A stretch of 53,052 nt of DNA from Dehalococcoidia bacterium UBA6808 (lineage in GTDB: Bacteria > Chloroflexota > Dehalococcoidia > GIF9 > UBA5629). Below the pieces are notes generated by a model. That model did not search any database. It was not told the origin of the DNA and saw nothing but the letters and a program-made list of their open reading frames with translations. The DNA is taken from NCBI GenBank assembly GCA_002452695.1, contig DKFA01000049.1, positions 1-53,052 on the forward strand, in the 5' to 3' direction. Below are positions 4,040-53,051 of this stretch, piece by piece. A program made the position numbers and the translations under genes. Numbering within the stretch: position 1 is the first letter of the stretch; every line of letters starts with the position of its first letter.

Positions 4040-4060
4040 TCGATAATCGGACGACTGAGG

Positions 4061-4100
4061 AAATCCCCCGGTTGTTAACAACCGGGGGATTTATTTTACT
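4061..4100 (+). terminator. Rho-independent terminator after abfD (perfect palindrome, could act in both directions)
   Basis: AAATCCCCCGGTTGTTAACAACCGGGGGATTT is a perfect 14-bp stem, followed by ATTTTACTTT. Confidence 0.7.
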
Positions 4101-4170
4101 TTCCCCAGGTAATTGGTAATCCTGTAGATTTATGTTACGATGACTGTGAAATAGCGGAGGTAAACTTGCC

Positions 4171-5349
4171 ATGAAGTACAGCGAAGTGGACTATTACAAG
4201 ATTGACGAGCTGCTGAACAATGAGGAGAAGATGACCCGTGACCTGGTGAGGGACTGTCTGGAGAAGGAGTTCCGGCCTTTGATCAGAGAAGCCTTCCATA
4301 ACGAACGGCCGCTGGATATGCACAGGCTGGCGCCGATGCTGGGCGACCTGGGTGTACTCGGCCCCTTCATACCAAGAGAATACGGCGCGGCAGGCAGCGG
4401 GTATGTTACCTTCGGCCTGATCTGCCAGGAGGTGGAACGGATTGACAGCGCGTTGCGCAGCTTCATTGCAGTGGGGTCCGGGCTGGTCATGTTCCCTATC
4501 TGGAAATACGGTTCGGAAGAGCAGAGACGGAAATGGTTGCCGCAACTGGCCAGAGGGGCGAAGATAGGCTGCTTCGGATTGACCGAGCCCAACATCGGCT
4601 CGGATATTGCATCTTTGGAGACGGTGGCCCGGCAGGAAGGGGACAAATGGGTGATCAACGGCGCCAAGCAGTGGATTAGCGATGCGACCATAGCCGATGT
4701 GGCGGTGGTGTGGGCGAAGACGCCCGAGATGGGGATCAAAGGCTTCGTGGTGGAGAGGGGAACGCCTGGCTTTGAGCAGAAGGCTATCGAAAAGAAGGGG
4801 TCGATGAGGGCGGGAGATGTGGGAGAGCTGTATTTCAACGACTGTGCGCTGCCGCTGGACAGCATCATGCCGGAATCGAGCGGGTTGAAATCCCCGGCGT
4901 CCTGTCTGAACATAGCCCGCTACGGCATATCATGGGGCGCATTGGGGGCGGCGATGGACTGCTATAATGTGGCGCTCAACTATGCTAAAGAGAGGAAGCA
5001 GTTCGGGGCGCCGATCGCTTCCTATCAACTGGCGCAGCAGAAGCTGGTAAATATGCTGATCGAGATCACCAAGGGGCAACTGCTCTGCTACCGGCTGGGC
5101 AGGCTGATGGACGAGGGCGATGCACGCCCACAGCAGATATCGATGGCCAAGAAGAACAATGTGGGCGTGGCGCGCATGTGTGCGCGCACGGCGCGGGAGA
5201 TGATGGGCGCCAACGGCGTATCGCTCGAGTATTCGCCGATCAGGCATATGGCCAATATAGAGTCCGTTTACACCTATCAGGGCACAGACGATATGCATAC
5301 GCTGATCATCGGGAGGGACATCACGGGCATAGCTGCCTTCAGGCATTAG
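4171..5349 (+). CDS. Acyl-CoA dehydrogenase, glutaryl-CoA dehydrogenase family (atypical: Gln at the catalytic-base position)
   Basis: It aligns without gaps, from memory, to GCDH blocks (YGSEEQRRKWLPQLARG, CFGLTEPNIGSD, LNIARYGISWGALGAA, GTDDMHTLIIGRDITG). GGAGG lies upstream of the ATG. Confidence 0.85.
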   Translation: MKYSEVDYYKIDELLNNEEKMTRDLVRDCLEKEFRPLIREAFHNERPLDMHRLAPMLGDLGVLGPFIPREYGAAGSGYVTFGLICQEVERIDSALRSFIAVGSGLVMFPIWKYGSEEQRRKWLPQLARGAKIGCFGLTEPNIGSDIASLETVARQEGDKWVINGAKQWISDATIADVAVVWAKTPEMGIKGFVVERGTPGFEQKAIEKKGSMRAGDVGELYFNDCALPLDSIMPESSGLKSPASCLNIARYGISWGALGAAMDCYNVALNYAKERKQFGAPIASYQLAQQKLVNMLIEITKGQLLCYRLGRLMDEGDARPQQISMAKKNNVGVARMCARTAREMMGANGVSLEYSPIRHMANIESVYTYQGTDDMHTLIIGRDITGIAAFRH

Positions 5350-21656: not shown

Positions 21657-23111
21657 CTATTTACGGGAAGCATGCACGCCTTCCCAGTAAGCGCTGACAT
21701 TATTCAGCGCCCTGATGGCCCTGTACATGGAGGGCACAACGTAAATTCCGGCTCTGAGCAGTTCATCACGAACCTGGCGGCGCGACAATTCCATGCCTAT
21801 TCTGTCCTGTCCTGTTGCAAGCTCTTCCAATACCAGTATGATGGGCTTGCGAGCCTCTTTCTGTTTGAATTCGATGATGGCGTTGAGCCTGTGCATCTGC
21901 TCGGGATAATCTTCGCCCATCAGTTCCTTCATGCCGTAGAAGAACATACGATTGATGATGAGGGCGTCGATCTTGTCCCAGTCGTGGGCAACTTTCATAA
22001 CATATTGCAGGATGATAGCCGGAGCAGAAGGGGCGCCGATATCGAAGGGGTTCTTGTTGCCGGTCCCTTGCGCCGGCAGGTATCTGGCGATGGTTTCGAT
22101 CACTTCAGGTGAGGAGTGCGGTATGTTCATATTGAAGACTTCGGAGATATCGCCAGCTGAGACGCCCACTCCTCCACCTCCTCCAATAATGGCCAGGTTT
22201 CTATATTCGCCCTCGGGGATATAGTGGAAGGCTGCCAGCGTATCGAGAAGCTCTTCGAAGCTGTTGGCCTGAACTGCGCCCGACTGTTTAAAAAAAGCTT
22301 CCCAGATCTTACGGTCGCCTGCCATGGACCCGGTATGGCTGCTGACAGCCCTTTTACCCGTGTCGGAAAGCCCGCCTTTCCATATGACCACGGGTTTCCT
22401 GCCTCTCAGGCTGCGTACCAGATGGGTGAAACAGCGTCCGTCAGTGACGCCCTCCAGATAGGCGCCTATGATAGCAGTCTCAGAATCAGCGGCAAAATAC
22501 TCCATAAGAGAAATTTCATTGAGGTCAACACCGTTGCCGTAGCTGACGGCCTTGCTGAAAAACACATTAAAACCATCCGATCCCCAGATCAGATCGGTGA
22601 CCCAGCCTCCACTCTGCGCCATAATACCGATATCCCCACTTTGTTTAGGATAGTTCGCGCCGGGCTGTAATGTAAGACCGCCTTCAGGCGAGTAGACTCC
22701 AAAGCAATTAGGACCAACGATCCGCATTTTGCCGCGGGCCAGTTTCATTATTTCCTGTTCAAGCAGCCAGCCCGCTTCATTAATTTCACGAAAGCCAGCG
22801 GAAAAAATCTCAGCAGTGGGAATACCCTTGGCTACGCAATCAGCGATTATACCGGGTACTTTAGCAGCTGGCGCACAAATTATGGCCATATCTATCTCGC
22901 CAGGTATATCTTTAACGCTGGCGTAGGCTTTCAATCCGCGAATCTCCGCAGCAGCGGGGTGGACAAGATAGATCTTACCTTTGTATCCATAGATCTGAAA
23001 GGCTTTGAGGAACTGGTTGCCAGCGTTATCATCCCTGGTGGAAACGCCGAAAAAGGCTACAGAGCGCGGACAAAACAAAGGCTCCAATTGTTTGTGTAAA
23101 TCAGGCTGCAT
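21657..23111 (-). CDS. Acyl-CoA synthetase (NDP-forming) alpha-type subunit / CoA-binding protein
   Basis: It has a CoA-binding Rossmann N-terminus (PRSVAFFGVS...), a succinyl-CoA-ligase-like domain and the phospho-His motif SSHTGSMAG. I prefer the ATG at 23111 (MQPDLHKQ). Confidence 0.75.
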   Translation of the reverse strand: MQPDLHKQLEPLFCPRSVAFFGVSTRDDNAGNQFLKAFQIYGYKGKIYLVHPAAAEIRGLKAYASVKDIPGEIDMAIICAPAAKVPGIIADCVAKGIPTAEIFSAGFREINEAGWLLEQEIMKLARGKMRIVGPNCFGVYSPEGGLTLQPGANYPKQSGDIGIMAQSGGWVTDLIWGSDGFNVFFSKAVSYGNGVDLNEISLMEYFAADSETAIIGAYLEGVTDGRCFTHLVRSLRGRKPVVIWKGGLSDTGKRAVSSHTGSMAGDRKIWEAFFKQSGAVQANSFEELLDTLAAFHYIPEGEYRNLAIIGGGGGVGVSAGDISEVFNMNIPHSSPEVIETIARYLPAQGTGNKNPFDIGAPSAPAIILQYVMKVAHDWDKIDALIINRMFFYGMKELMGEDYPEQMHRLNAIIEFKQKEARKPIILVLEELATGQDRIGMELSRRQVRDELLRAGIYVVPSMYRAIRALNNVSAYWEGVHASRK

Positions 23112-23170
23112 GGTCAGACACCCCCTTGAACAAGTAAGAAATGATAACACACATCAATAAAACAATGTAA

Positions 23171-26881: not shown

Positions 26882-27064
26882 TTATTCGGGCTCATCTTTT
26901 CTTAAAGGTTTCAATAAATATTCCAGTCCGTTAAGCTTGATCTCATGGAGAACCGACAGCAGCATGGCGATCCTGCCTCGGGGGAAACCTTTGCTGTGAT
27001 ACCCCACAATGTAATGTTCAGACAGATCACAAAGAATGTAGTCTGCATATTTTCCGTAAGGCAT
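26882..27064 (-). CDS. DUF3820-like small protein
   Basis: MPYGKYADY...LSEHYIVGYHSKGFPRGRIAMLLSVLHEIKLNGLEYLLKPLR resembles the MPFGKYKG...KGFP.G.LG......EIK.NGL pattern. The upstream part of the ORF-track entry runs into tRNA-Pro, so I discarded it. Confidence 0.6.
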   Translation of the reverse strand: MPYGKYADYILCDLSEHYIVGYHSKGFPRGRIAMLLSVLHEIKLNGLEYLLKPLRKDEPE

Positions 27065-27135
27065 TCTGACTGAAGCCAGATCAAGCGATATCGGCGGATC
27101 GCTTGAGATGTGTATATGTACTGAGATTACTAAAG

Positions 27136-27211
27136 TGGTCGGGGTGAGTGGATTCGAACCACCGACTTCATGGTCCCAAACCATGCGCGCTAGCCGCTGC
27201 GCTACACCCCG
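27136..27211 (-). tRNA. tRNA-Pro (anticodon TGG), CCA encoded
   Basis: Acceptor CGGGGTG/CACCCCG, anticodon stem CATGG/CCATG, loop TTTGGGA, T-loop GGTTCGAATCC. Confidence 0.9.
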
Positions 27212-27269
27212 CAGGAAAAGAGTATAGAATCACCAGCTATTGACGTCAAGGGCGCGGCTGGATGAGAAG

Positions 27270-27998
27270 CTACCTGCAATTGGGGCAGATGTCGAAAAAT
27301 CCGACGGGCAGGTCTGCTTTCCTGCGAATATATTCAAGCTGGGCTTCGGGCGCCCAGTAAATGCCGCATTTTGAACACTTCTTCAATTTGAACTCAACTT
27401 TCCAATTATGAATACGGCGTACGCCGTTCTTGTCTTCCATCTTGATGGCATGGGTGGGACAAACATAGTAACATGAGCCGCAGCCGATGCAATCCGTGGC
27501 CTTTTCGAGGAAGGGTGGCGCAGGCTCTTTGCTGATGCCGCGATTGACCAGGCTGATGGCACTGACGCCGACCACCTGCTCACAGGCGCGAACGCAGAGT
27601 CCACAAACAATACAGTCATTCTTCTCCCAATATTCCTGGCGAAATGATGGTTGGGTGACTCCGTATTCAGCAGCAAGGTTTTTAATGACCTCGTTTTCAG
27701 AGCATCTGGCCAGCAGGAGATCAAGCAGCATTTTACGGTTGCGAATGACACGGTCACTGGCGGTCTGCACAATCAAGCCCTCTTCAACAGGATAAAGGCA
27801 GGAGGTCACTATGCGCGTACGCGAGCCCCTGGTTACCTCCACAACGCAGAGGCGGCATGCGCCGTAAGGTTCAATAGCTTCATTATGGCAGAGGGTCGGG
27901 ATCCTGATTCCGTTATCCGTAGCTACCTGCAGCACGGTCCGTCCACGTTCAGCGGTATATTTTTTCCCGTCTATTGTTAAAGTAACTGTTTCACTCAA
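27270..27998 (-). CDS. Fe-S subunit resembling the N-terminal part of NuoG/HydA: [2Fe-2S] plus two [4Fe-4S] motifs plus a C-terminal Cys4; no catalytic domain
   Basis: The 2Fe-2S pattern is CHNEAIEPYGACRLC...C. The ferredoxin motifs are CIVCGLCVRAC and CIGCGSCYYVCP. The terminal pattern is CSKCG...CPNC. At only 242 aa it has no H-cluster or molybdopterin domain. Confidence 0.8.
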   Translation of the reverse strand: MSETVTLTIDGKKYTAERGRTVLQVATDNGIRIPTLCHNEAIEPYGACRLCVVEVTRGSRTRIVTSCLYPVEEGLIVQTASDRVIRNRKMLLDLLLARCSENEVIKNLAAEYGVTQPSFRQEYWEKNDCIVCGLCVRACEQVVGVSAISLVNRGISKEPAPPFLEKATDCIGCGSCYYVCPTHAIKMEDKNGVRRIHNWKVEFKLKKCSKCGIYWAPEAQLEYIRRKADLPVGFFDICPNCR

Positions 27999-29844
27999 TG
28001 CCTACAGCTCCCATCTTACAAATATCATAGCATGTTCGACACTTTATGCACTTGGATTGGTCAAGTATTACGGGTTTCCTCTTTTCAACAAAGGTTATTG
28101 CGTTAGTAGGGCAGGCCTTTACGCACAGGCCACAGCCGGGGCAATTATCCTTGATATAGAAATGGATGAGGGCTTTGCAGACCCCGGCCGGGCATTTTTT
28201 GTCACGGATATGAGCCATGTATTCATCGTGGAAATAATTTATCGTAGTTAGAACTGGATTGGGGGCCGAACTGCCCAGAGCACAGAGAGCGCTGTCCTGC
28301 AGGTGCGCTCCAAGCTCTTTGAGCAAATCAATATCGCTTTCCTGGCCCTTGCCGTCGCAAATATCGTTCAAAATCTGGCGCATGCGCTTGATGCCTTCAC
28401 GGCAGGGAACACATTTACCGCAGGACTCCTCTTCCAGGAAAGTGAGGAAATAACGAGCCACATCGACCATGCAGTTGTCTTCGTCCATTACGATCATGCC
28501 GCCGGAGCCCATCATTGAGCCGGCTTTGGTCAATTCATCGAAATTAACAGGTAGATCGAGCATGCTCTCGGGCAGGCATCCACCGGAAGGTCCGCCGGTT
28601 TGTACAGCCTTGAATTTCTTGCCGTCTCTGATGCCTCCGCCGATATCAAAAATGATGTCGCGCAGCTTAATGCCAAGCGGCACCTCCACCAGACCGGTAT
28701 TATTAACCTTTCCCGTGAGGGAGAAGATCTTGGTGCCGGTGTTGCCGCTTGAACCAATAGCGCTGAACCATTCAGGCCCATTGTTGATAATCAAAGGTAT
28801 ATTGGCCCAGGTTTCAACGTTATTCAGGTCGCTTGGTCTTTCCCAAAGGCCTTTTTCGACGGTGTGAATATATTTAGCCCTCGGCTCGCCGGGTTTGCCT
28901 TCGAGTGAGGCCATTAAGGCGGTCGATTCACCGCAGACAAAAGCCCCTCCACCCCGGTTAATACGGACGTTAAAATCAAATCCTGATCCCAGAATATCTT
29001 TTCCAAGCAGGCCGAGTTTTTCGGCCTGCTGCATGGCAATGGTGATGTTTTTGAGCGCCAGGGGATATTCATTACGAACATAAATGTAGCCCTGGTGAGC
29101 TCCGATGGCATAAGCACCGATGATCAGGCCCTCCAGTACGCTATGGGGATTGCCGCTGAGCAGGCCTTCATTGGCATAGGCGCCCGGGTCTCCTTCGTCG
29201 GCATTGACAATTACATACTTGATATCACCATGGGCGTTGCGGCAAGACTCCCACTTGGCGCCGGTCGGGAAACCACCTCCGCCACGCCCACGTAGACCCG
29301 AGGCTTTGACCATGTCAATGATTTGCTCGGGTTTCAGCTCAAAGAGCGATTTCGAGAGAGCTGAATAACCGCCGATGGCGATATAGTCCTCAATGCTGGT
29401 AGGGTCGATTTTGACGTTGTTGCCAAGAATAATACGCTGCTGCTTCTTATAGAAGGGTATATCTACCTGCGCCTGTATGTTACCAACGCTGTCATTCTTA
29501 AATAGAAGGCGTTCGATAACTATTCTATTAAGCAGGGTTTTTTCGACGATTTCTGGAATATCGTCCACCTGTATCTTCTGGTAAAAAATATTGCCGGGTT
29601 GGATGAGGGCAACCGGCCCGCGTTCACAGAAACCGTGGCAACCGGTAATTCTGAAATCAATCTTGTCAGCAACGCCGCGCTTTTCGATTTCCGTCTTAAA
29701 GGCCTCAACAACAGGATTGCTGCCGTAGGGCCGACAGGCAGTGCCGTTGCAGACTGATATACTGACCTTGCCAGCATCGGCAACTTTACCAAGTTTCTTT
29801 TGCAGCGCTTCCAGAGCTTTAGGAGATTTTAGTTTGCTTGGCAT
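27991..29844 (-). CDS. NuoF/HydB-like NAD(P)H-binding FMN flavoprotein with an N-terminal thioredoxin-like [2Fe-2S] domain and C-terminal 2x[4Fe-4S]
   Basis: FMN/NADH motifs are GRGGGGFPTGAKW and NADEGDPGAY. The N3 cluster motif is SCGKCVPCREG. The N-terminus has CNGTAC...CHGFCE. The C-terminus has CPGCGLCVKACP and CIKCRTCYDIC. Confidence 0.9.
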   Translation of the reverse strand: MPSKLKSPKALEALQKKLGKVADAGKVSISVCNGTACRPYGSNPVVEAFKTEIEKRGVADKIDFRITGCHGFCERGPVALIQPGNIFYQKIQVDDIPEIVEKTLLNRIVIERLLFKNDSVGNIQAQVDIPFYKKQQRIILGNNVKIDPTSIEDYIAIGGYSALSKSLFELKPEQIIDMVKASGLRGRGGGGFPTGAKWESCRNAHGDIKYVIVNADEGDPGAYANEGLLSGNPHSVLEGLIIGAYAIGAHQGYIYVRNEYPLALKNITIAMQQAEKLGLLGKDILGSGFDFNVRINRGGGAFVCGESTALMASLEGKPGEPRAKYIHTVEKGLWERPSDLNNVETWANIPLIINNGPEWFSAIGSSGNTGTKIFSLTGKVNNTGLVEVPLGIKLRDIIFDIGGGIRDGKKFKAVQTGGPSGGCLPESMLDLPVNFDELTKAGSMMGSGGMIVMDEDNCMVDVARYFLTFLEEESCGKCVPCREGIKRMRQILNDICDGKGQESDIDLLKELGAHLQDSALCALGSSAPNPVLTTINYFHDEYMAHIRDKKCPAGVCKALIHFYIKDNCPGCGLCVKACPTNAITFVEKRKPVILDQSKCIKCRTCYDICKMGAVGIE

Positions 29845-29862
29845 ATCTATTATTCTTTATTC

Positions 29863-30309
29863 TTAATATTTTTTGAGCATCGGTTCGACTTTATCATTGG
29901 TCATATGCCCGAAATATTCCTCATCGATCTTAACGACCGGGCCTGTCGCACAGCACCCCATGCAATTGACCGATTCGAGTGTAAATTTACCGTCAGCCGT
30001 GGTACCACCGCGCTTAACATTAAGCTGCCTCTCAAGTGATTCCGCAATGAGTTCGCCTCCGCGAACGTGGCAGGCTGTGCCCAGACATACATTGATGATA
30101 TGCTTGCCCCTTGGCTTAAGGCTGAAGGCACGGAAAAAAGTGGCCATGCTGTAAATCTGGCTCTGAGGAATATCAAGTTTTTTGCTCAGTTTGTTAAGGG
30201 CTTCACGGGGCAGGTAATTATATTCGGCCTGGATATCCTGCAGGATGGAGACAAGCTGACTTTTATCCTTATTATATTTTTTTACGATCTCAGAGACTTT
30301 ATCTTTCAT
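29863..30309 (-). CDS. NuoE/HydC-like thioredoxin-like [2Fe-2S] ferredoxin subunit
   Basis: CLGTACHVRG...CMGCCATGP is the Cys pattern of the 24-kDa subunit family. Length is 148 aa. Confidence 0.9.
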   Translation of the reverse strand: MKDKVSEIVKKYNKDKSQLVSILQDIQAEYNYLPREALNKLSKKLDIPQSQIYSMATFFRAFSLKPRGKHIINVCLGTACHVRGGELIAESLERQLNVKRGGTTADGKFTLESVNCMGCCATGPVVKIDEEYFGHMTNDKVEPMLKKY

Positions 30310-31238
30310 TTGCCCTTTTTCCTCGACGAGAGCATCTTGATTTTCTCATATTCTACGATGACTTTTTGCTGGATCTCGGCAATCTGCTCTTTGGTAAGAT
30401 GGCGGAATCTACCTTGAGCCGTGAGATAGTCCTCGACAGGCCTCAGCTTTGGATAATCAAAGTTCATCTTGTATTCGCCATTCTCGATTTCATAAAGGGG
30501 AAAAACACCAGTCTCAACTGCGAGCCGTCCCATTTTAATGGTATCGCTCGATGGGCAGCGCCAGCCGGTCGGACACACTGAAAGGATATGGATATAAGAA
30601 GGCCCCTTGACCTTCCTGGCCTTCTCTATTTTATACATTATGTCAAATGGATAACTGGAGCAACTGGTAGCAACGTAGGGTATATTGTGCGCTGCGGCGA
30701 TAGCAGCCATGTTTTTCTTCCAGGTGTGCTGTCCCATGCTGACCTTGCCCGAGGGGGCGGTGGTAGTGGATGCGCCGAAAGGCGTTTCGCTGGATCGTTG
30801 AATACCCGTATTCATGTAAGCTTCGTTGTCAAAGCAAACGTAAATGAAATCATGACCCCGTTCAAGCGCGCCGGAGAGGGCCTGCAGTCCGATATCGGCT
30901 GTGGCTCCATCGCCGCCCATGGCCACTACTTTAACATCCTTGATATAGCCATGCTTGCGTTTAAGGGCTTTGAGACCCGATTCAATTCCGGAGGCCACCG
31001 CCGCAGCATTCTCAAACAGCGTATGTATCCAGGAGACCTCCCAAGCAGTTTCAGGAAGCGGAGATGAGATAATCTCCATACAGCCCGTTGCATTGGAGAT
31101 AATAGTGTTACGGCCGAGCGCTTTGCAGACATAGCGTAATGCCAGAACCTCGCCGCAGCCAGAGCAGGCACGGTGCCCTGAAGCGATATATTCCTTGTTT
31201 GTGACTAACTTAGGCACATAAACGCTGAGTGTTTCCAC
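30306..31238 (-). CDS. 2-oxoacid:ferredoxin oxidoreductase, beta (TPP-binding) subunit
   Basis: The motifs CSGCGE, GGDGATADIG and FDNEAYMNTGIQ form the TPP/[4Fe-4S] signature of PorB-type subunits. Confidence 0.9.
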   Translation of the reverse strand: METLSVYVPKLVTNKEYIASGHRACSGCGEVLALRYVCKALGRNTIISNATGCMEIISSPLPETAWEVSWIHTLFENAAAVASGIESGLKALKRKHGYIKDVKVVAMGGDGATADIGLQALSGALERGHDFIYVCFDNEAYMNTGIQRSSETPFGASTTTAPSGKVSMGQHTWKKNMAAIAAAHNIPYVATSCSSYPFDIMYKIEKARKVKGPSYIHILSVCPTGWRCPSSDTIKMGRLAVETGVFPLYEIENGEYKMNFDYPKLRPVEDYLTAQGRFRHLTKEQIAEIQQKVIVEYEKIKMLSSRKKGK

Positions 31239-32413
31239 TATTCTCTCACTCCAAACATAATTATCTCGCCGGTATGGCCTGTCTTGATCTTTTCCAATCC
31301 CAGTTCCACCAGAGCAATAAAATTCTCAGGAGAAATATCACGTCCGCCCAGTCCGCCGATAATTCCGACCACATGCGGTTTTTTCTCCAGCGGATAAAGA
31401 GCTGCTTTAATTTCGGAGCAGACAGGACCGGGACCACCCAGTGAAATCGCCCTGTCCAGCACAATAACATTTTTAGCGCCGGACAGCGCTGCGACCAATT
31501 CCTCGGTTGGGAAAGGCCTCCAAAGGCGAAGGCGCACAAGCCCAACTTTTTTACCGGATTCCTGCATCCTGTCGACAGCCATCATGGCATTTTCACTGAA
31601 ACTACCCATAGTAACCAGCAGAGTATCGCAATTCTCAGTCTTGTATTTCTCAACAGGCAGGTAGTGACGTCCAGTGAGCGCTCCGAATTTTTCCCAAGTT
31701 TCCAGTATGACTTTCTTGGAATTGCGTAAAGCCATATCCAGGGCTTTGCGAGTTTCAAAATAGTAATTGGGCATGGCGAAGCAGCCCATAGTTACTGGAT
31801 TATCGGGATCCAGTGGAGTGGGGTGCACGTACGGCGGCAGGAATTCATTTACCGTTTTCTGATCAAGGAGATAGAACGATTCAATAACATGGGTAGCATG
31901 AAAACCGTCTACATCTACAGCTACTGGTAGCATGACATCCTTGTGTTCAGCGATGCGGAAGGCACAGAGGGTCTGATCGAAAGCCTGCTGGCCGTTTTCA
32001 ACAAAAATATGTATCCAGCCTGCATCCCTGGCCATCATAACGTCGGAATGATCTCCCCAAATACTGAGCTGACCGGACAGCGCACGATTGGCGATAGCCA
32101 TGACAACAGGCAGTCTGAGAGCAGAGGCAACAGTAACTACCTCGTGCATAAGAATCAGGCCCTGTCCGGCCGTAGCGGTGAAAGTTCTGGCGCCGACAGC
32201 GCTGGCGCCGAGACAGGCGCTCATGGCAGAATGCTCAGATTCTACGGGTATATATTCGGCATCGAGCTCACCGTTGGCCACCATCTCAGCCAGGCCTTCC
32301 ACGATGTGGGTCTGGGGTGTGATGGGATAAGCTGCGATAACATCGACATTAGCCAGCTTGACAGCCTGGGCGATGCCGAGCGACGATTCGAGACCAACAC
32401 GTTTTGAAGTCAT
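31238..32413 (-). CDS. 2-oxoacid:ferredoxin oxidoreductase, alpha subunit
   Basis: The PorA-type N-terminus is AAYPITPQT...ESEHSAMSAC.GAS..GAR.FTATAGQGL. Length is 391 aa. Confidence 0.9.
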   Translation of the reverse strand: MTSKRVGLESSLGIAQAVKLANVDVIAAYPITPQTHIVEGLAEMVANGELDAEYIPVESEHSAMSACLGASAVGARTFTATAGQGLILMHEVVTVASALRLPVVMAIANRALSGQLSIWGDHSDVMMARDAGWIHIFVENGQQAFDQTLCAFRIAEHKDVMLPVAVDVDGFHATHVIESFYLLDQKTVNEFLPPYVHPTPLDPDNPVTMGCFAMPNYYFETRKALDMALRNSKKVILETWEKFGALTGRHYLPVEKYKTENCDTLLVTMGSFSENAMMAVDRMQESGKKVGLVRLRLWRPFPTEELVAALSGAKNVIVLDRAISLGGPGPVCSEIKAALYPLEKKPHVVGIIGGLGGRDISPENFIALVELGLEKIKTGHTGEIIMFGVRE

Positions 32414-32415
32414 AT

Positions 32416-33297
32416 TCAGGCTTCCTCAACCATTTTTATTGCCTGGGTCCAGCATTCCCTGGCGCAGATTCCGCAGCCCTTACAGTAAAATAAATCGGCG
32501 CGGAAGAACCCGTCCTTTTGCTGCTTAATGCAGCCTTCGGGGCAAAAGATAGAGCAGATACCGCATTTGATGCACTTACTGTCCAGCCATTCAGGGTGCT
32601 GGGATTTCCAGTTGCCAGTACAAAAAGCCTTAGTATTGCCGACATCAGTGACCACACAACCAACAGGCAATTCATTCCATTTAGGCAGCTTCTCGACTGC
32701 GAACGATCTGGGTCTCTTATCGCCGCTTGGGGTGATCTCACTGATAACGGTGTTTTCGGCTGCCTGTTTACATGCTTCAAAATTGGATTTAGCGCGTGCC
32801 CCGAACCTTTCTTCCAGAGGTTCGCGCAGCGAGTCGCAATCTATCACTTCTGTGGCCTTTATCAAGGCGCCAAGCATGGTGGTGTTAACGATATTTACAC
32901 CCAGTAATTTTTTAGCGATGGAAGCGGCATCAACCACTGCCAATTTCCAGTCACCACTGAAATCCTGCTGGAGGTCTTCAACCGACCTGGCGCTGTTGAC
33001 GATCAATGTTCCGCCCGGTTTCAGACCGTCCGTGACATTGATCAGCGAGACCAATCCCGGATCAATGACGACCACGATATCCGGTTTGATGATGCCCGAT
33101 CTTTCACGTACAGCCCTATCCGTGCGTATGCGGTTGAAAGCGAGCACGGGGGCCCCTCGCCTTTCGGGCCCGAAGCTGGGAAAAGCCTGGGCATATTTTC
33201 CTTCGTGTATTGCTGCCAGAGCTGTCAATTCTGCTGAGGTAACCGCACCCTGACCTCCCCGGCCATGCCATCTGATTTCAATGATATCGTTTTTCAT
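32416..33297 (-). CDS. 2-oxoacid:ferredoxin oxidoreductase, gamma subunit fused to a delta (2x[4Fe-4S] ferredoxin) domain
   Basis: The gamma-type N-terminus is IRWHGRGGQGAVT...FGPERRGAP. The C-terminus has CIKCGICSIFCPEGC and CKGCGICARECW. Confidence 0.88.
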   Translation of the reverse strand: MKNDIIEIRWHGRGGQGAVTSAELTALAAIHEGKYAQAFPSFGPERRGAPVLAFNRIRTDRAVRERSGIIKPDIVVVIDPGLVSLINVTDGLKPGGTLIVNSARSVEDLQQDFSGDWKLAVVDAASIAKKLLGVNIVNTTMLGALIKATEVIDCDSLREPLEERFGARAKSNFEACKQAAENTVISEITPSGDKRPRSFAVEKLPKWNELPVGCVVTDVGNTKAFCTGNWKSQHPEWLDSKCIKCGICSIFCPEGCIKQQKDGFFRADLFYCKGCGICARECWTQAIKMVEEA

Positions 33298-33343
33298 ATA
33301 TCTGCCAGATACCTATCAGTTTATATAGATTTATGGGACAATG

Positions 33344-33415
<72 letters not shown>

Positions 33416-33530
33416 AAAGTTGCTTCATAAAAGAACTCGATGAAGCTCCGGGTACACCGTAGAGTGTTAGTATAACAATTTTAATTTTCAGTTTGCAAAT
33501 CGGGATTACTCACCCGCCTATAGAGATACG

Positions 33531-36731: not shown

Positions 36732-36830
36732 GGTTTTCGTCCCTGTTAAAAATTGAAAATAGCGACTAAGGCAAAATTATATCATCCTTTAGTTGTCAGT
36801 CCAAAGTGATCGGTCAGTTCATTGTCGTGT

Positions 36831-36859
36831 TTGGTCGACTGAGATGAGAATGATATAAT
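36831..36859 (+). promoter_or_regulatory. Candidate promoter for the tandem tRNA-Ser genes
   Basis: TTGGTC, 17 nt spacer, then TATAAT. It ends 11 nt before the first tRNA. Confidence 0.45.
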
Positions 36860-36870
36860 AGACCGTCAGC

Positions 36871-36956
36871 GGAGAGGTGACCGAGTGGCTTATGGTGCCG
36901 CTCTCGAAAAGCGGTGGGCGAGAGCCTCGTGGGTTCGAATCCCACCCTCTCCGCCA
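36871..36956 (+). tRNA. tRNA-Ser (anticodon CGA), CCA encoded
   Basis: Acceptor GGAGAGG/CCTCTCC, anticodon stem CCGCT/AGCGG, loop CTCGAAA, and a long variable arm. Confidence 0.9.
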
Positions 36957-36969
36957 TATTATTAACATT

Positions 36970-37058
<89 letters not shown>

Positions 37059-37074
37059 TTTGTAATCTGGCGGA

Positions 37075-37923
37075 ATGACAGAAATGAACAAGACCCAAAT
37101 CAAAGTCGGATTGGCCCTGGGCAGCGGGGCGGCGAGAGGCATCGCACATATCGGTGTTATCAAGGCGCTTGAGGAAGCACAGGTCCCCATAAACTACATC
37201 GCCGGCACCAGCATGGGAGCGCTGGTAGGCGCATGTTATGCGGTCGATGCTAACATCTCGCTGCTTGAGGAGATTGCCTTAGCCACCACTCCGAAGAAGC
37301 TGTCAGGATTGCTTGACCCGAAGTTCTCGATTTTCAGGGCCGGATTGCTTGGCGGCAAAAAAGTGGAAAGATTTCTTAGAGATATCATCGGGGATATCGA
37401 TATCGAGAAATGTCTGATTCCCTATAGCGCTGTAGCTTGCGAACTTAAAACCGGGCGTGATATTGTGCTTGCCACAGGCCCCCTGATCAAGGCGGTGCGA
37501 GCCAGTATCTCCATTCCAGGTGTTTTTGTCCCTGTCTTATACAACGGTCTATACCTTGTAGACGGGGGTACGGTAAACCCTGTGCCGGCAGACGTGGTCA
37601 GGTCTATGGGGGCCAATTTCATTATTGCAGTCAATGTGCTGAATGACCCTAAGAAGCGCCCAAGACTGGGCTTGACCGGGGATAAAAAATCGGACAGGAT
37701 GCCATCTATTTTTAACACTATCATCCAGTCACTATATGTCATGGAATACGGTATAGTCAGGGCCAACCTGCTAAAAGCCGATATATTGATCGAACCTGAT
37801 GTAAGCGCCATCGAATCATACGAATTTTATCGGGGCAGCTACGCCATTGAAGCAGGTTATAAAGCGGCTTTACCGGTTATGCCGGAGATAAAAAACCTGC
37901 TCGAGCAATTTGAACATGCGTGA
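37075..37923 (+). CDS. Patatin-like phospholipase (RssA-like)
   Basis: The oxyanion motif GSGAARG, the nucleophile motif GTSMG (GxSxG) and the catalytic Asp in VDGG are present. Confidence 0.88.
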   Translation: MTEMNKTQIKVGLALGSGAARGIAHIGVIKALEEAQVPINYIAGTSMGALVGACYAVDANISLLEEIALATTPKKLSGLLDPKFSIFRAGLLGGKKVERFLRDIIGDIDIEKCLIPYSAVACELKTGRDIVLATGPLIKAVRASISIPGVFVPVLYNGLYLVDGGTVNPVPADVVRSMGANFIIAVNVLNDPKKRPRLGLTGDKKSDRMPSIFNTIIQSLYVMEYGIVRANLLKADILIEPDVSAIESYEFYRGSYAIEAGYKAALPVMPEIKNLLEQFEHA

Positions 37924-48504: not shown

Positions 48505-50058
48505 CTATCTACACGAGTACTTTGCCCGCAGTTTGGGTTTTTCGATCTTGCCGGTAGGATTGCGAGGCACCTTGTCAAAAATAACTTTGCGTGGCACTTT
48601 ATGTCGGGCAAGATGTGTCTTGCAGAACTCGATAGCCTCTTCTTCGGTTAAATGGTCGCCGGGCTTAATATCTATAATCGCAACGGCTATCTCCCCCAGA
48701 CGTTCATCAGGGATCCCAATGACAGCCACATCGTTAACGCATTTATGATTATGTAAACAATCTTCCACTTCAACAGGGAAAATGTTCTCACCGCCTGTAA
48801 TAATGAGGTCTTTCTTACGGTCCACCAGAAAGATAAAACCGTCATCGTCCATGGTGGCCATGTCACCCGTTAACAGCCAGCCGTCCTTGAGGCATTCAGC
48901 GGTTTTCTCCGGGTTTTTATAATACTCCTTCATAACCCCGTCGCCACGCACAGCCAGTTCGCCGACCTGATTTTTACCCAGGGTATGGCCTTTGTCATCG
49001 ATGATCTTAGTTTCCCAGTTGAACCCTGCTTTGCCGATGGCGCCGGCCTTGTGCAGGTTCTCAATGCCGAGATGAACACAACCCGGACCGGTCGATTCGG
49101 TCAATCCGTAATTAGTATCATATTGCATATTGGGGAAAACCTGTTTCCACTGCCGTATCAATGAAGGCGGCACAGGTTGCGCGCCGATATGCATCAGCCG
49201 CCATGAATCAAGATTGTAGTCCTTTCTGTTTAGCTCTCCTTTCTCCAGCGCTACGAGTATATCGTGCGCCCAGGGCACAAGTAACCAGACGATCGTGCCT
49301 TTCTCCCTGTCCACCGTTTCCAAAATGTTGCGAGGTCCGACCTCGTTGAGCAGAGTGGCCTTCCCGCCGACGATCAGGCTGCCGAACCAGTGCATCTTGG
49401 AACCGGTGTGGTAGAGGGGAGGAATGAGAATGAAATTATCATCGCGGGTCTGGCGGTGGTGCGCCCACTCAGTAATAGCTGCGCTTTTAATATTGCTATG
49501 CGTTAATAAGATCGGCTTGGGTTTCCCCGTGGTACCGGAAGTGAAATAAAGACTGCAACCCTCGTCATCGCGCAGCTCGATCTTTGGCGCCTGGTCGCCC
49601 ATTCCGGCAATAAAATCCCGGTAGTTATCCATGTATCCAGGAGCATTATCCGGGACGGCAATGAACTTCTTAATTTTTTTCAGATGAGGGCGCGCTTCAT
49701 TGATCCGTTCGAAGAACTCCTCTCCAACGATGGCTGTCCTGGCCTCAGAAATGTCTGCACAATAAATAAGATCGCTGCTGTTAAAGCGGAAATTGAGGGG
49801 CACTACCCAGGCGCCGGTACGCAGTATGCCGAAATAGGCGATCAGCCAATCGATGGAATTCATCATCCAGTGAATGACCCTGTCGCCCTTTTTCACGCCG
49901 CAACTCAACAGCGAATTGGCGACGCGGTTGGCTTCACTATCGAATTCTTTCCATGTGATCTCACGGCGAAATTTTTTCGATGGTTTCAGCTCGACCAGCG
50001 CGCAATCATCTGCGTAGAGCCTGGCATTTCTGGCCAACATTTCCGGGATGGTAATCAT
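48505..50058 (-). CDS. AMP-forming acyl-CoA synthetase (ANL superfamily)
   Basis: The AMP-binding motif is YFTSGTTGKPKPILLTH, with TGD and the C-terminal GKIEK lysine motif. Length is 517 aa. Confidence 0.88.
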   Translation of the reverse strand: MITIPEMLARNARLYADDCALVELKPSKKFRREITWKEFDSEANRVANSLLSCGVKKGDRVIHWMMNSIDWLIAYFGILRTGAWVVPLNFRFNSSDLIYCADISEARTAIVGEEFFERINEARPHLKKIKKFIAVPDNAPGYMDNYRDFIAGMGDQAPKIELRDDEGCSLYFTSGTTGKPKPILLTHSNIKSAAITEWAHHRQTRDDNFILIPPLYHTGSKMHWFGSLIVGGKATLLNEVGPRNILETVDREKGTIVWLLVPWAHDILVALEKGELNRKDYNLDSWRLMHIGAQPVPPSLIRQWKQVFPNMQYDTNYGLTESTGPGCVHLGIENLHKAGAIGKAGFNWETKIIDDKGHTLGKNQVGELAVRGDGVMKEYYKNPEKTAECLKDGWLLTGDMATMDDDGFIFLVDRKKDLIITGGENIFPVEVEDCLHNHKCVNDVAVIGIPDERLGEIAVAIIDIKPGDHLTEEEAIEFCKTHLARHKVPRKVIFDKVPRNPTGKIEKPKLRAKYSCR

Positions 50059-50088
50059 ACTGTTTAATCTCCTGCGGAGGTTTGATAA

Positions 50089-51393
50089 TCAGTAGCGCGT
50101 CATGCTGGGCAGGAAGGTAGCGATCTGCGGGAAAGCCAGCAATATGGCGGCAGCTATGACAAGGGCAATAAGGAAAGGAAAGATGCCCTTAAAAATCGTT
50201 TCCAGCGGCACTCCCCCGGCCGCGCCATGAATTACATATACGTTCAGACCGACCGGCGGAGTGATGACGCCCATCTCGGTTACCAATACGATGACGACTC
50301 CGAACCAGATCGGATCAAGCCCCAGCGCCAGGACGACCGGGAAGAAGACGGGGATGGTGAGGGTTATCAGCGCAAGTGAGTCCATGAAGCACCCACCGAT
50401 GAGGTAAATGACGATAACCACCGCCATAATTGCCATTGGTGGAAGCGGCAGCGCCCCAACCCAGTCTGTCAGCATCATGGGTATTTTGGTTACAGCGATG
50501 AAATGCCCGAAGACTGTAGCTCCTGCCACAATAACCATGACCATAGCCGTAACCCGTACGGCATCTTTAAGCGCATTGACAAACCCTGGCCAGGTAAGTG
50601 TCCGTGTGACAAGTCCAATCAGGATAGCACCGCCCACACCTGCACCGCCTGCCTGCGTTGGGCTGAACCAGCCAAAGAAAAGTCCCAGGATCACGAAACA
50701 GAATAAAATCAGCATCTCGGTGACGCCGGCCAGCGCTTCGACTTTTTCCTTAAAGGTGGAGCCGACTGCGGCAGGCGCCAGTTCAGGCTTGCGCCAGACC
50801 ATGATGACTATGGCAGCCATAAGCAGCACGGCGATAAGCAGACCGGGCAGGACTCCGGCTATAAAGAGCTTGCCGATAGATTGCTCCGTGAGAATTCCGT
50901 AAACAATAAAGATTGTGCTGGGAGGAATCATGATGCCCAGTGTACCAGCGGCAGCAACCACACCGGTAGCCAGCGAATCGTCATATTTATAGCGTTTCAT
51001 CTCCGGTATGCAGACCTTGCCCATAGCTGCCGCGGTGGCGCTGGTGGAGCCGTTGATGGCAGCAAAACCTGCGCAGCCAAGAATGGTGGCCAGGGCCAGC
51101 CCGCCGCGGAACCGGCTGAAGAGAACATACCCGGCATCGTAGAGTCGCAGGCTCATACCGGATTCTGAAGCAATACAACCCATCAGGGTAAACATGGGGA
51201 TCACTGTCAGTGAATAAGATGAAAAGATATCAAAGAAGTCTCTTGCCAGTATGTTCATACCGGCATCCAGCGTAACGAACATGCTGAATCCAACCACTCC
51301 GACCAGGGCCATGGTAAAGCCGACGGGCATGCGGAGCAGGAAGATCACTATCAGGAGTATGATGCTTACGATGCCGATTACTACGGGGTCCAT
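50089..51393 (-). CDS. dctM: TRAP transporter large permease subunit
   Basis: The 434-aa polytopic membrane protein has a DctM-like organisation. It lies next to the small permease and the solute-binding subunit. Confidence 0.88.
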   Translation of the reverse strand: MDPVVIGIVSIILLIVIFLLRMPVGFTMALVGVVGFSMFVTLDAGMNILARDFFDIFSSYSLTVIPMFTLMGCIASESGMSLRLYDAGYVLFSRFRGGLALATILGCAGFAAINGSTSATAAAMGKVCIPEMKRYKYDDSLATGVVAAAGTLGIMIPPSTIFIVYGILTEQSIGKLFIAGVLPGLLIAVLLMAAIVIMVWRKPELAPAAVGSTFKEKVEALAGVTEMLILFCFVILGLFFGWFSPTQAGGAGVGGAILIGLVTRTLTWPGFVNALKDAVRVTAMVMVIVAGATVFGHFIAVTKIPMMLTDWVGALPLPPMAIMAVVIVIYLIGGCFMDSLALITLTIPVFFPVVLALGLDPIWFGVVIVLVTEMGVITPPVGLNVYVIHGAAGGVPLETIFKGIFPFLIALVIAAAILLAFPQIATFLPSMTRY

Positions 51394-51397
51394 AGCA

Positions 51398-51889
51398 TTA
51401 GCTCTCCCTCAACACCTTTAAAAGCTGCATTATCAAAGCCAGGATAACAACGATACAGCTAAACCCCATGGCCCAGACAAAAGGATAATAAGGCAGAGCC
51501 ATGGTCATAGAGACTTCGCCGCTGGCCTGGAGAGCAGTTCCATATTTAAAACTGCGTATAGACAGGATGATAAAAAGAACAATGGAAAGCAGATAGACAA
51601 AGGTGGCGATGATTTTCTGGGCTGTTTTGGGCAACCTTGTGACCAACATTTCGACTTCGATATGCCCGTGCGCGAGTTGTGTTTCGGCAATGGCGAATGA
51701 GACAGCTATCACGCTAAAATAGCTGACGAGCTCAATGCCGCCGGGTACAGGTGTCTTGAACAATTTATTGCCTATGATATCGGCCACTACAATAACAACC
51801 ATAACAGCCAGCGCCAGACAGGCAACATAATTGGCCCATTTGGAACACGCTGTCACAAATTTTTCAAAATTGCTGAATAATAATCTCAA
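51398..51889 (-). CDS. dctQ: TRAP transporter small permease subunit
   Basis: The 163-aa protein has four hydrophobic helices and sits between the DctP-like and DctM-like genes. Confidence 0.8.
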   Translation of the reverse strand: MRLLFSNFEKFVTACSKWANYVACLALAVMVVIVVADIIGNKLFKTPVPGGIELVSYFSVIAVSFAIAETQLAHGHIEVEMLVTRLPKTAQKIIATFVYLLSIVLFIILSIRSFKYGTALQASGEVSMTMALPYYPFVWAMGFSCIVVILALIMQLLKVLRES

Positions 51890-51950
51890 GAATATTCACC
51901 CAGCGGCTGATTGCTATATTCTATTTACCTTTATTATCTATTTTTATTAT

Positions 51951-53051
51951 CTATTTTCCGAACTCTTTCTTATTGAACTCTATGATGGTTTCATCCGAAG
52001 GAGATTGAGGCGCATACTCCCTGGCCTTTTCAACAAGGAATTTTTCATATTCAGCAGATGGCAAACCCTTGCTGGAAAGATCTCGAATGAAATCAGCAGT
52101 CAAAGGCAAGGTGGCATCCACCCAGCGGGCTGATTCGGTAGCGGAGAGGTTAATCACCTCACGGCCTTCGAAAGTCTGGAAATAATTCATAGCGGAGACG
52201 TCATAATTGGTCCAGACCATGCCATGCTTATCGATCCATTCCCTGCTGACCTGGGTGAAAACATCCTGGATATCGGCCGGGAGGCTATTCCACTTATCCT
52301 TGTTCATTACGACAAACATATTGGCTGTGCTGCCGACGTCAGTGCACTGCGTGACGTATTTGACAATCTCGGCCTGCTTCCAGCCTTCCAACACCTCGCG
52401 GGGAGTGTAGCTGCCGTCGATGGTGTTCTTGGACATCAGGTCATATGCTTCGTTCTGGGCTGCTCCATAGCCTTTGCCACCCAACGCCCCGATGATGGCA
52501 GCACCAATGCCGGTTGACCTGATTACCAGACCCTTCATATCTTCCAACTGACGAACTGGTTTACTGACAGTCAGAAGCACGCTGGGACCATGCGCATGGA
52601 AATAGAGCACATGCACGTCATCGAGTTCCGCAGGCTTGAACTTGTTGTAGTAATCATTGGCTACACGTGTCGCAACCCAGCCGTTAAGGTAGCCATGGGG
52701 CAATTCGACAAGCTCCGATGCGGGGAAGCGGCCTTTGGTGTAGGAAACAACCGACATGCCCAGGTCGGAAAGGCCGTTGACCACGCCGTCATAGACCTTA
52801 TCGGCTTTGGTCAGGGTACCACCGGCAAAGACAGTGATTTTAACCCTTCCATTGGTTCTCTTGTCGATTTCGTCGCAGAACTTTTGGGCAAGAAGCGCGT
52901 TCTTGTGCACCGGCGGGAAAAAGACGCTGTAGCTGAATTCATAAACCTTATTGTCAGACGGATTGGCTGCTGTTGAACCGCTTGCTGGAGCAGCAGGCTT
53001 GTTTTCGGTTGCTGCCGGAGCTGGCGTGTTGCAGGCTGCCAAAATCGGCAA
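51951..53051 (-). CDS. dctP: TRAP transporter solute-binding subunit (DctP family), lipoprotein; 5' end runs off the window
   Basis: The frame stays open to the window edge, and a lipobox-like LAAC lies near the edge. The body is DctP-like (FPPVHKNALLAQKFCDEIDKRTNGRVKITVFAGGTL). Confidence 0.8.
   Translation of the reverse strand: MPILAACNTPAPAATENKPAAPASGSTAANPSDNKVYEFSYSVFFPPVHKNALLAQKFCDEIDKRTNGRVKITVFAGGTLTKADKVYDGVVNGLSDLGMSVVSYTKGRFPASELVELPHGYLNGWVATRVANDYYNKFKPAELDDVHVLYFHAHGPSVLLTVSKPVRQLEDMKGLVIRSTGIGAAIIGALGGKGYGAAQNEAYDLMSKNTIDGSYTPREVLEGWKQAEIVKYVTQCTDVGSTANMFVVMNKDKWNSLPADIQDVFTQVSREWIDKHGMVWTNYDVSAMNYFQTFEGREVINLSATESARWVDATLPLTADFIRDLSSKGLPSAEYEKFLVEKAREYAPQSPSDETIIEFNKKEFGK

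Follow-up and report, generated by a model that had tools for sequence, protein, structure and literature searches.

The BfuABC proteins form a family of flavin- and iron–sulfur (Fe–S)-dependent bifurcating enzymes that was defined by Schut et al. in 2022 (PMC9304861). One predicted member of its Type 2 group is 'Por-Bfu', in which the module is encoded together with pyruvate:ferredoxin oxidoreductase (POR, or PFOR); it was described with four Por subunits and seven genes, was represented by 12 sequences in 2022, and has Dehalococcoides mccartyi 195 as its example, where the genes lie with a tRNA gene on either side and, as cited in that paper, are all co-expressed (PMC9304861). Tungsten aldehyde oxidoreductase and CO dehydrogenase are other published Type 2 partners. 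For Por-Bfu, pyruvate synthesis from NADH and reduced ferredoxin was proposed, and the rationale of bifurcation with a substrate of such low potential was left unclear: the authors' own question is why a donor as reducing as pyruvate should be coupled to bifurcation at all (PMC9304861). Here we analyse a six-gene operon of this type from the uncultured Dehalococcoidia bacterium UBA6808, located at positions 27270–33297 on the minus strand of a 53,052-nucleotide (nt) stretch (contig DKFA01000049.1 of assembly GCA_002452695.1; hereafter 'the window'). The operon probably encodes one multi-subunit Por-Bfu-type enzyme of the Type 2 BfuABC (HydABC-like) flavin/Fe–S bifurcating family, whose POR and Bfu parts would be physically associated. 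The architecture itself is not new, having been published from genomes in 2022; the window holds a further example and bears out a prediction already in print, without adding a new kind of system.

The closest structurally described relative is WorABCSL, the electron-bifurcating tungsten aldehyde oxidoreductase (WOR) of Acetomicrobium mobile, solved by cryogenic electron microscopy in 2025 (PMC12318220; PDB 9MQX), which couples a low-potential oxidation to concurrent NAD and ferredoxin reduction via a small, zinc-finger-containing BfuA. This subunit, WorA, has no cluster A3; at the position of cluster A5 in other BfuA proteins it holds a Cys4 zinc finger, and an adaptor helix at its C-terminal end recruits WorS. 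The homolog of WorA in Por-Bfu is stated to contain clusters A1, A2 and A4 only and to possess the zinc-finger motif but not the helix (PMC12318220), which is exactly what the BfuA sequence in the window displays.

Gene content and cofactor sites

In the direction of transcription, the open reading frame (ORF) list gives porCD (32416–33297; 293 residues, a gamma–delta fusion), porA (31238–32413; 391 residues, alpha), porB (30306–31238; 310 residues, beta), bfuC (29863–30309; 148 residues, NuoE/HydC-like), bfuB (27991–29844; 617 residues, NuoF/HydB-like) and bfuA (27270–27998; 242 residues, similar to the N-terminal part of HydA/NuoG), all on the minus strand. According to these coordinates, the successive junctions are a 2-nt gap, a 1-nt overlap, a 4-nt overlap (shared by the porB stop and the bfuC start), an 18-nt gap and an 8-nt overlap. 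An earlier note on this DNA, made from the letters alone, had listed precisely these genes and junctions. Domains were assigned by Pfam and NCBIfam profile searches of the six proteins, with the curated NCBIfam thresholds as equivalog cut-offs, and the domains that the note had named in each protein were recovered throughout. Cofactor ligands were compared across 41–51 homologs from por-linked loci.

All four domains of a 2-oxoacid:ferredoxin oxidoreductase (OFOR) are present: alpha, beta with a thiamine pyrophosphate (TPP) motif and the proximal cluster, gamma, and delta with two clusters. PorCD joins a POR gamma domain (PF01558, 6e-36; residues 5–182) to a delta-type 2×[4Fe-4S] domain (residues 211–293) with cluster cysteines C242/245/248/252 and C272/275/278/282. 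PorA contains POR_N and PFOR_II domains and a YPITP motif that includes Thr32; PorB contains TPP_enzyme_C, the TPP-binding GDG...N motif and the proximal [4Fe-4S] ligands C25, C28, C53 and C222, kept in 41/41 relatives. The closest solved enzyme is the four-subunit, archaeal-type PorABCD PFOR 9BT4 (alpha, 9bt4_B, 7e-92; beta, 5e-99; gamma, 9bt4_E, 2e-41; delta, 9bt4_G, 1e-20), whose TPP and three [4Fe-4S] sites are conserved here. It differs in that gamma and delta are fused in the window, the genes are translationally linked to bfuCBA, and BfuA, not free ferredoxin, is the acceptor proposed for the electrons. There is precedent for the gamma–delta fusion in the 'delta' subunit of oxalate oxidoreductase from Moorella thermoacetica (PDB 5C4I; 5c4i_B, 315 residues, aligns with PorCD residues 27–291); that enzyme, however, has another substrate and no Bfu module, and the window proteins score far below the oxalate oxidoreductase equivalog cut-offs. 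Fusion of PorC and PorD is found in 31 related loci, from the closer Dehalococcoidia, and the two are split in 16. The published Por-Bfu description has separate subunits and hence one gene more than the six seen here, a compactness that would be convenient for heterologous expression.

BfuC consists of a 2Fe-2S_thioredx domain (PF01257, 1e-50) with a single [2Fe-2S] cluster, C1, whose ligands C75, C80, C116 and C120 are conserved in 51/51 relatives; among solved structures it is matched best by HydC of bifurcating hydrogenases (8a6t_C, 3e-44; 7t2r_C). BfuB comprises an N-terminal 2Fe-2S_thioredx domain, Complex1_51K, SLBB, NADH_4Fe-4S and a C-terminal 2×Fer4 domain, the HydB-type extensions at both ends being those that the note had recognised. 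Its NuoF-type loops for flavin mononucleotide (FMN) and NADH (RGRGGGGFPTG, NADEGDPGA and GGGAFVCGESTAL) align with those of WorB and NiFe-HydB. The ligands comprise C475/478/481/521 for the N3-type [4Fe-4S] cluster B1, C32/37/69/73 for the thioredoxin-like [2Fe-2S] cluster B5, C568–C609 for the ferredoxin domain with the two [4Fe-4S] clusters B3 and B4, and C458, C496, H545, C551 and C556 for the B2/Zn site, which was placed by hand on the alignment with A. mobile NiFe-HydB (7t2r_B C438, C476, H525, C531, C536). Ligands B2–B5 are conserved in 44–49 of 49 por-linked relatives, except at position 496. The best solved matches of BfuB are WorB (9mqx_B, 3e-230) and NiFe-HydB (7t2r_B, 2e-227), and its residues 456–560 (105 residues) share 67% identity with a segment of D. 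mccartyi Por-BfuB that the PMC9304861 supplement prints.

That segment and the shared flanking tRNA genes (see below) establish orthology to D. mccartyi Por-Bfu indirectly, and together they match the window to the published Por-Bfu description, as do the gene order (por genes first, then bfuC, bfuB and a small bfuA) and the organism class. More generally, BfuB and BfuC resemble the corresponding subunits of the [FeFe]- and [NiFe]-hydrogenases HydABC and HydABCSL (PDB 7P5H, 7Q4V, 8A6T, 7T2R; BfuB, 1e-188 to 1e-227; BfuC, 1e-37 to 1e-44), whose FMN, B1, C1, N-terminal [2Fe-2S] and C-terminal 2×[4Fe-4S] sites all recur in the window proteins. By contrast, BfuA lacks the H-cluster domain, A3 and A5 of these hydrogenases, NiFe small and large subunits are missing, and the third substrate here would be a 2-oxoacid/acyl-CoA couple. 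The presence of the Fe–S, FMN and Zn-site ligands of bifurcating cores in BfuB, BfuC and BfuA, and their conservation among the homologs, support assignment to Por-Bfu.

BfuA, as the note had proposed, corresponds only to the N-terminal part of HydA/NuoG: Pfam and NCBIfam searches of the protein found Fer2_4 and 2×[4Fe-4S] domains and no hydrogenase, molybdopterin or NiFe domain. The FeFe_hydrog_A6 model matches over its first ~210 positions only (137 bits against a cut-off of 765), leaving the H-cluster domain absent. Ligands are present for the A1 [2Fe-2S] cluster (C37/48/51/67) and, in two CxxCxxCxxxC motifs, for the [4Fe-4S] clusters A2 and A4 (C129/132/135/139 and C170/173/176/180); the Fer2_4 region and both motifs are invariant in 48/48 relatives. 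The His-ligated cluster A3, which had seemed missing in the note as well, is indeed absent: the stretch between the 2Fe-2S domain and the first of these motifs contains a single cysteine (C99) and no histidine, and residues 82–125 hold no His/Cys motif. At the A5 position, as in WorA, the cysteines form no more than a Cys4 motif of the zinc-finger type (CxxC...CxxC; C208/211/238/241, nt 27276–27377), and are likewise invariant in 48/48 relatives. BfuA aligns with WorA (9mqx_A, 247 residues; 2e-47) from end to end, residues 3–242 matching 3–234, and stops at the zinc finger, 13 residues short of WorA and without the C-terminal adaptor helix. The operon thus shares with WorABCSL a small BfuA without A3 and with the Cys4 zinc finger, WorA and WorB being the best solved BfuA and BfuB matches; it also shares, as predicted from the genes, the principle of a donor enzyme of low potential feeding a BfuBC core by which NAD and ferredoxin are reduced together. 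It differs in having a TPP-dependent POR in place of the tungstopterin enzyme, in lacking a WorS polyferredoxin 'nanowire' subunit as well as the helix, and in the residue at the B2 site of BfuB, which is Thr (with Zn) in WorB.

The possibility that bfuA is a truncated hydrogenase or formate dehydrogenase gene, which the note had raised against its own proposal, was ruled out: homologs are 236–262 residues long (238–253 in all of the 120 matches listed), and this uniform length and the full-length alignment with WorA show that the gene is not a fragment. In one further contig (JGI 3300001592), otherwise identical to the window, a 1-nt insertion at ~12068 (window ~27777) divides bfuA into ORFs of 81 and 166 residues; as this contig contains N bases, the split probably reflects an error in sequencing or assembly and not a pseudogene.

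The window BfuB is unusual at one position. Residue 496, in the B2/Zn site, is Thr in 44, Ser in 4 and Val in 1 of the 49 Por-linked relatives, and Thr in D. mccartyi, whereas it is Cys here (codon TGC, 28357–28359, minus strand). Because TGC differs from the ACN threonine codons at two nucleotides, a single-base error cannot explain it. Cys496 resembles C476 of the NiFe enzyme (7T2R); in the NiFe-Bfu structure, Cys at this position goes with a [2Fe-2S] B2 cluster, and the enzymes with Thr bind Zn (PMC9304861, PMC12318220). This residue, the PorC–PorD fusion, and the class-wide tRNA-Arg/tRNA-Pro flanks with a very short spacer between tRNA-Arg and porC are the local peculiarities of the locus.

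Conservation of the gene order

Species-representative genomes were scanned with an alignment of BfuA homologs as the query, the best 80 loci were taken, and the six proteins were located at each by tblastn and ORF calling; the synteny count was restricted to the 49 loci with ≥5.4 kb of sequence upstream of the small bfuA. In 44 of these 49, from at least three phyla, porA and porB lie directly 5′ of the bfu genes in the order porC(D)-porA-porB-bfuC-bfuB-bfuA. The syntenic loci belong to Dehalococcoidia, other Chloroflexota, Thermodesulfobacteriota, Syntrophaceae, Desulfatiglandales, Syntrophomonadaceae and Dethiobacter, Firmicutes being among them. The most frequent spacing is a 4-nt overlap between porB and bfuC (20 loci) and an 8-nt overlap between bfuB and bfuA, as in the window. 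In addition, the identical BfuB protein occurs with the same neighbours on eight contigs from several independent metagenome samples, so the arrangement is not an assembly artefact. Judged by the best-matching species-level genomes with enough flank, it is much commoner than the dozen sequences of 2022 suggested, being deeply conserved in Dehalococcoidia and recurring in syntrophic Desulfobacterota and Firmicutes. Dehalococcoidia are abundant in subsurface and contaminated-site microbiomes.

Where POR is missing, bfuCBA adjoins other enzymes: a tungsten-type aldehyde:ferredoxin oxidoreductase at two loci (L063, L068), CO dehydrogenase at two more (L077, L070; at L077 together with acetyl-CoA synthase), and a response-regulator/4Fe-4S protein at another (L079). 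The small BfuA proteins of the first four are ~46% identical to that of the window, and these loci appear to add further members from uncultured bacteria to the predicted Wor-Bfu and Codh-Bfu classes; L077 is a single-cell genome of Candidatus Omnitrophota. This pairing with alternative oxidoreductases suggests that small BfuA is a connector through which different low-potential oxidoreductases are joined to one BfuBC core. A different variant is seen in an uncultured member of Dehalococcoidales (L042; contig CAYHBC010000050.1, 1594–5310), where porCD-porA-porB is directly followed by a small bfuA without bfuC and bfuB, with genes for a thiolase and for acyl-CoA dehydrogenases next in line. 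Either BfuA has been kept by this POR as its dedicated ferredoxin-like subunit, or the variant is a deletion or an assembly artefact; the retention of BfuA beside POR ties the two together. The conserved order, the overlapping genes and this variant provide indirect evidence for a complex of POR and BfuABC.

The central proposal of the earlier note was that the NuoE/NuoF/HydA-N module may have the OFOR as its catalytic partner, and the note had tied this to conserved synteny in relatives. With the order kept in 44 of the 49 informative genomes, the proposal is supported by comparative evidence as the leading hypothesis, and it coincides with the Por-Bfu hypothesis already in print (PMC9304861).

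Predicted mechanism and energetics

By analogy with the characterised family members, a third substrate would reduce NAD+ and ferredoxin in a tightly coupled manner (bifurcation). The mechanism was modelled by homology with WorABCSL, NfnABC and HydABC (PMC12318220; PMC11829005), and each of its steps is a prediction on that basis. The TPP-dependent POR formed by PorCD, PorA and PorB would interconvert pyruvate + CoA and acetyl-CoA + CO2, with pyruvate as the probable substrate to judge from the profile matches discussed below. Electrons would pass from TPP to the [4Fe-4S] cluster of PorB, then to the two [4Fe-4S] clusters of PorD, and from there not to free ferredoxin but into BfuA (A4 to A2 to the A1 [2Fe-2S] cluster), which would hand them to B1 and FMN in BfuB. 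At the 'flavobicluster' composed of B1, FMN and C1, the last residing on BfuC, four electrons would be split: two would leave FMN as a hydride to NAD+, presumably in preference to NADP, and two would travel singly via the C-terminal clusters B3/B4 of BfuB to ferredoxin. The predicted overall reaction is 2 pyruvate + 2 CoA + NAD+ + 2 Fd(ox) <-> 2 acetyl-CoA + 2 CO2 + NADH + H+ + 2 Fd(red), where Fd is ferredoxin, and neither acceptor would be reduced without the other. The reaction should be reversible, and its direction in vivo may vary: in acetate-assimilating Dehalococcoidia the enzyme would serve as a pyruvate synthase, with NADH supplying half of its electrons, and in fermentative relatives it would run oxidatively, making NADH and reduced ferredoxin together.

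Calculated from Table 1 of PMC9304861 (pyruvate/acetyl-CoA + CO2 couple, -500 mV; NAD, ~-280 mV; Fd, ~-500 mV), the oxidative direction releases ~42 kJ for every two pyruvate. Because the neighbouring genes suggest a heterotroph, this direction is at least as plausible in the window host as synthesis. If such an enzyme does operate, NADH enters or leaves directly at the pyruvate/acetyl-CoA node in energy-limited anaerobes, and models of their redox balance and carbon assimilation change.

Several observations weigh against a single coupled enzyme that acts on pyruvate. PorA, PorC and PorD fall below their equivalog cut-offs (PorA_Arch, 464 vs 550; PorC, 193.5 vs 225; PorD_Arch, 90.6 vs 120), so pyruvate is the probable, not the proven, substrate. 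The operon has neither the docking helix of WorA nor a gene for a WorS-like subunit, and PorA and PorB have no evident docking extensions relative to the stand-alone PFOR 9BT4. The modules can also occur apart, as in the orphan bfuCBA of locus L054 and in L042 with its POR and BfuA only. On the energetic side, the pyruvate couple is not 'mid-potential', and pyruvate could reduce both acceptors without bifurcation. The synthase direction, moreover, is calculated, for E'(NAD) = -280 mV and E'(Fd) = -500 mV, to cost ~21 kJ per pyruvate and to require a shift of ~5x10^3 in the mass-action ratio, attainable only at low pyruvate and high acetyl-CoA + CO2; the demand for reduced ferredoxin would be halved in return. 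The literature searched contains no purification, assay or other biochemistry of any Por-Bfu. A search for the biochemistry of a bifurcating or NADH-linked pyruvate synthase returned only the two Bfu papers (PMC9304861, PMC12318220), and one for the D. mccartyi locus tags DET0724-DET0730 returned no papers. Finally, an AlphaFold2 model of BfuA, built from a 15-sequence alignment, was left unused, its mean predicted local distance difference test score being 61.5 and that of the 2×[4Fe-4S] region <50.

Alternative explanations

The operon could instead encode two separate enzymes, a ferredoxin-dependent POR and a free-standing BfuABC NADH/ferredoxin module, which are linked through soluble ferredoxin and co-transcribed for stoichiometric supply without forming a complex. 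The 2×[4Fe-4S] domain of PorD is indeed of the standard ferredoxin-donating type, and both the similarity of PorA and PorB to a stand-alone enzyme and the orphan locus, together with the lack of a known docking element in the operon proteins, would fit. We nevertheless regard this as unlikely: with a catalytically empty BfuA, a free-standing BfuABC would have no third substrate, and electron transfer from NADH to ferredoxin alone is uphill. In addition, por/bfu gene order and the stop/start overlaps are retained across phyla, homologous modules with a small BfuA always stand beside some low-potential oxidoreductase (the WOR case being a proven complex), and L042 keeps BfuA with POR after the loss of BfuBC.

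A second alternative concerns the substrate alone and leaves the Bfu coupling as in the Por-Bfu-type enzyme that we favour: the OFOR might act on another 2-oxoacid, for example as a 2-oxoisovalerate:ferredoxin oxidoreductase (VOR), or have a broad range. Besides the shortfall of PorA and PorC already mentioned, VOR models are the next-best matches (beta-subunit model NF008818, 364 bits against a cut-off of 405). However, POR models rank first among the NCBIfam matches for every OFOR subunit, PorB exceeds its equivalog cut-off (NF008819, 426 bits against 405), and the closest solved enzyme is a PFOR, which makes a different substrate improbable. Thr32 in the YPITP motif argues against an oxalate oxidoreductase-type site, which has Arg at the matching position.

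It is also doubtful, and to a slightly greater degree, that the flavoprotein simply passes electrons from POR to NAD+, as in phenylglyoxylate dehydrogenase or non-bifurcating HydAB, with B3/B4/B5 as accessories and no need for ferredoxin. At -500 mV pyruvate can reduce NAD+ directly, and coupling is thermodynamically unneeded (PMC9304861, Table 1); yet the characterised non-bifurcating BfuB homologs lack B2–B5, which are present here and in most por-linked relatives, and a donor of equally low potential did not reduce either acceptor by itself in Wor-Bfu (PMC9304861). An NAD-linked class of OFOR does exist in the form of PadEFGHI, the phenylglyoxylate dehydrogenase of Azoarcus/Aromatoleum, in which an extra flavoprotein links the OFOR to NAD+; its NCBIfam subunit models (PadE/F/G/I) match window proteins, PorCD, PorA and PorB among them, but all scores are far below the cut-offs. 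The NAD-linking subunit of PadEFGHI is not known to be a NuoE/NuoF/HydB-type module, nor is the enzyme known to bifurcate.

That the bfu genes supply the N-module (NuoEFG) of complex I is very improbable and was ruled out on domain grounds: although the 11-subunit Nuo of Dehalococcoides lacks NuoEFG (PMC11238625) and BfuC, BfuB and BfuA match NuoE, NuoF and NuoG models, BfuA has neither the His-ligated cluster (the N5 equivalent) nor the C-terminal NuoG body for docking and wiring to the Q-module, BfuB carries HydB-type N- and C-terminal Fe–S domains that NuoF does not have, the NuoG model covers residues 7–97 only (85 bits against 470) with nuoF_fam also short of its cut-off (465 against 559), and the same operon is found in other phyla.

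Transcription and flanking tRNA genes

The operon is bracketed by two tRNA genes on the same strand, identified by ARAGORN and Rfam: tRNA-Arg (CCG; 33343–33415, minus), 45 nt 5′ of the porCD start codon, and tRNA-Pro (UGG; 27136–27211, minus), 58 nt 3′ of the bfuA stop. This bracket is present at 14/14 Dehalococcoidia loci examined, down to ~54% BfuA identity (loci L007–L057), but at 0/6 from other phyla, and in 13/14 of the Dehalococcoidia loci tRNA-Arg and porC are separated by only ~25–45 nt. Two promoter-like sites were found as consensus matches only. One, TTGCAA-18 nt-TATACT with a TG extension (33469–33498, minus), lies upstream of tRNA-Arg, and the other, TTGACG-17 nt-TATACT with 10/12 matches (27221–27249, minus), between the bfuA stop and tRNA-Pro. 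The former is a candidate promoter of tRNA-Arg and possibly also of the six-gene operon: the short spacer leaves little space for a promoter, which suggests that the operon may be co-transcribed with tRNA-Arg from this site.

Within the operon, a scan of the minus strand for consensus matches, compared with shuffled sequence, yielded 9 terminator-like matches (7.4 +/- 2.5 expected) and 11 promoter-like matches (8.7 +/- 2.5 expected), both at chance level, and none of either kind at the porB/bfuC boundary. The earlier note's observation that the operon has no internal terminator is therefore upheld, and the boundary between the OFOR beta gene and the NuoE-like gene, where it had considered an independent promoter or terminator, is free of such signals in the scan. 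An Rfam scan of the whole window returned seven tRNAs only, with no leader and no riboswitch.

A more far-reaching combination of these features can be put forward as speculation that we consider rather unlikely to hold in full. Here, the complex would be the main pyruvate synthase of Dehalococcoidia and obligately confurcating, with NADH and reduced ferredoxin together driving the carboxylation of acetyl-CoA; Cys496 would install a redox-active [2Fe-2S] cluster B2 where relatives bind zinc; and the operon would be part of a tRNA-Arg...tRNA-Pro transcript and thereby tied to growth-rate control. A confurcating pyruvate synthase, if true, would halve the reduced-ferredoxin cost of carbon assimilation and give a CO2-fixing step an energetic mode that had not been demonstrated before.

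Neighbouring genes

Neighbouring genes in the window (21657–23150, minus; 2549–5349, plus; 48505–53051, minus) encode an ADP-forming acetate–CoA ligase alpha-like protein that scores below its equivalog cut-off, an HpaB/4-hydroxybutyryl-CoA dehydratase-family protein, an acyl-CoA dehydrogenase, a fatty-acyl-CoA ligase and a TRAP transporter. No reductive dehalogenase was found among the ten window proteins scanned. This gene content suggests organic-acid metabolism in a heterotroph, in which respect the uncultured host differs from the published Por-Bfu example. Two ORFs of 100 and 111 residues (26882–27184 and 36814–37149, both minus), which overlap tRNA-Pro and two tRNA-Ser genes (36871–37058, plus), respectively, are almost certainly spurious read-throughs of tRNA sequence.

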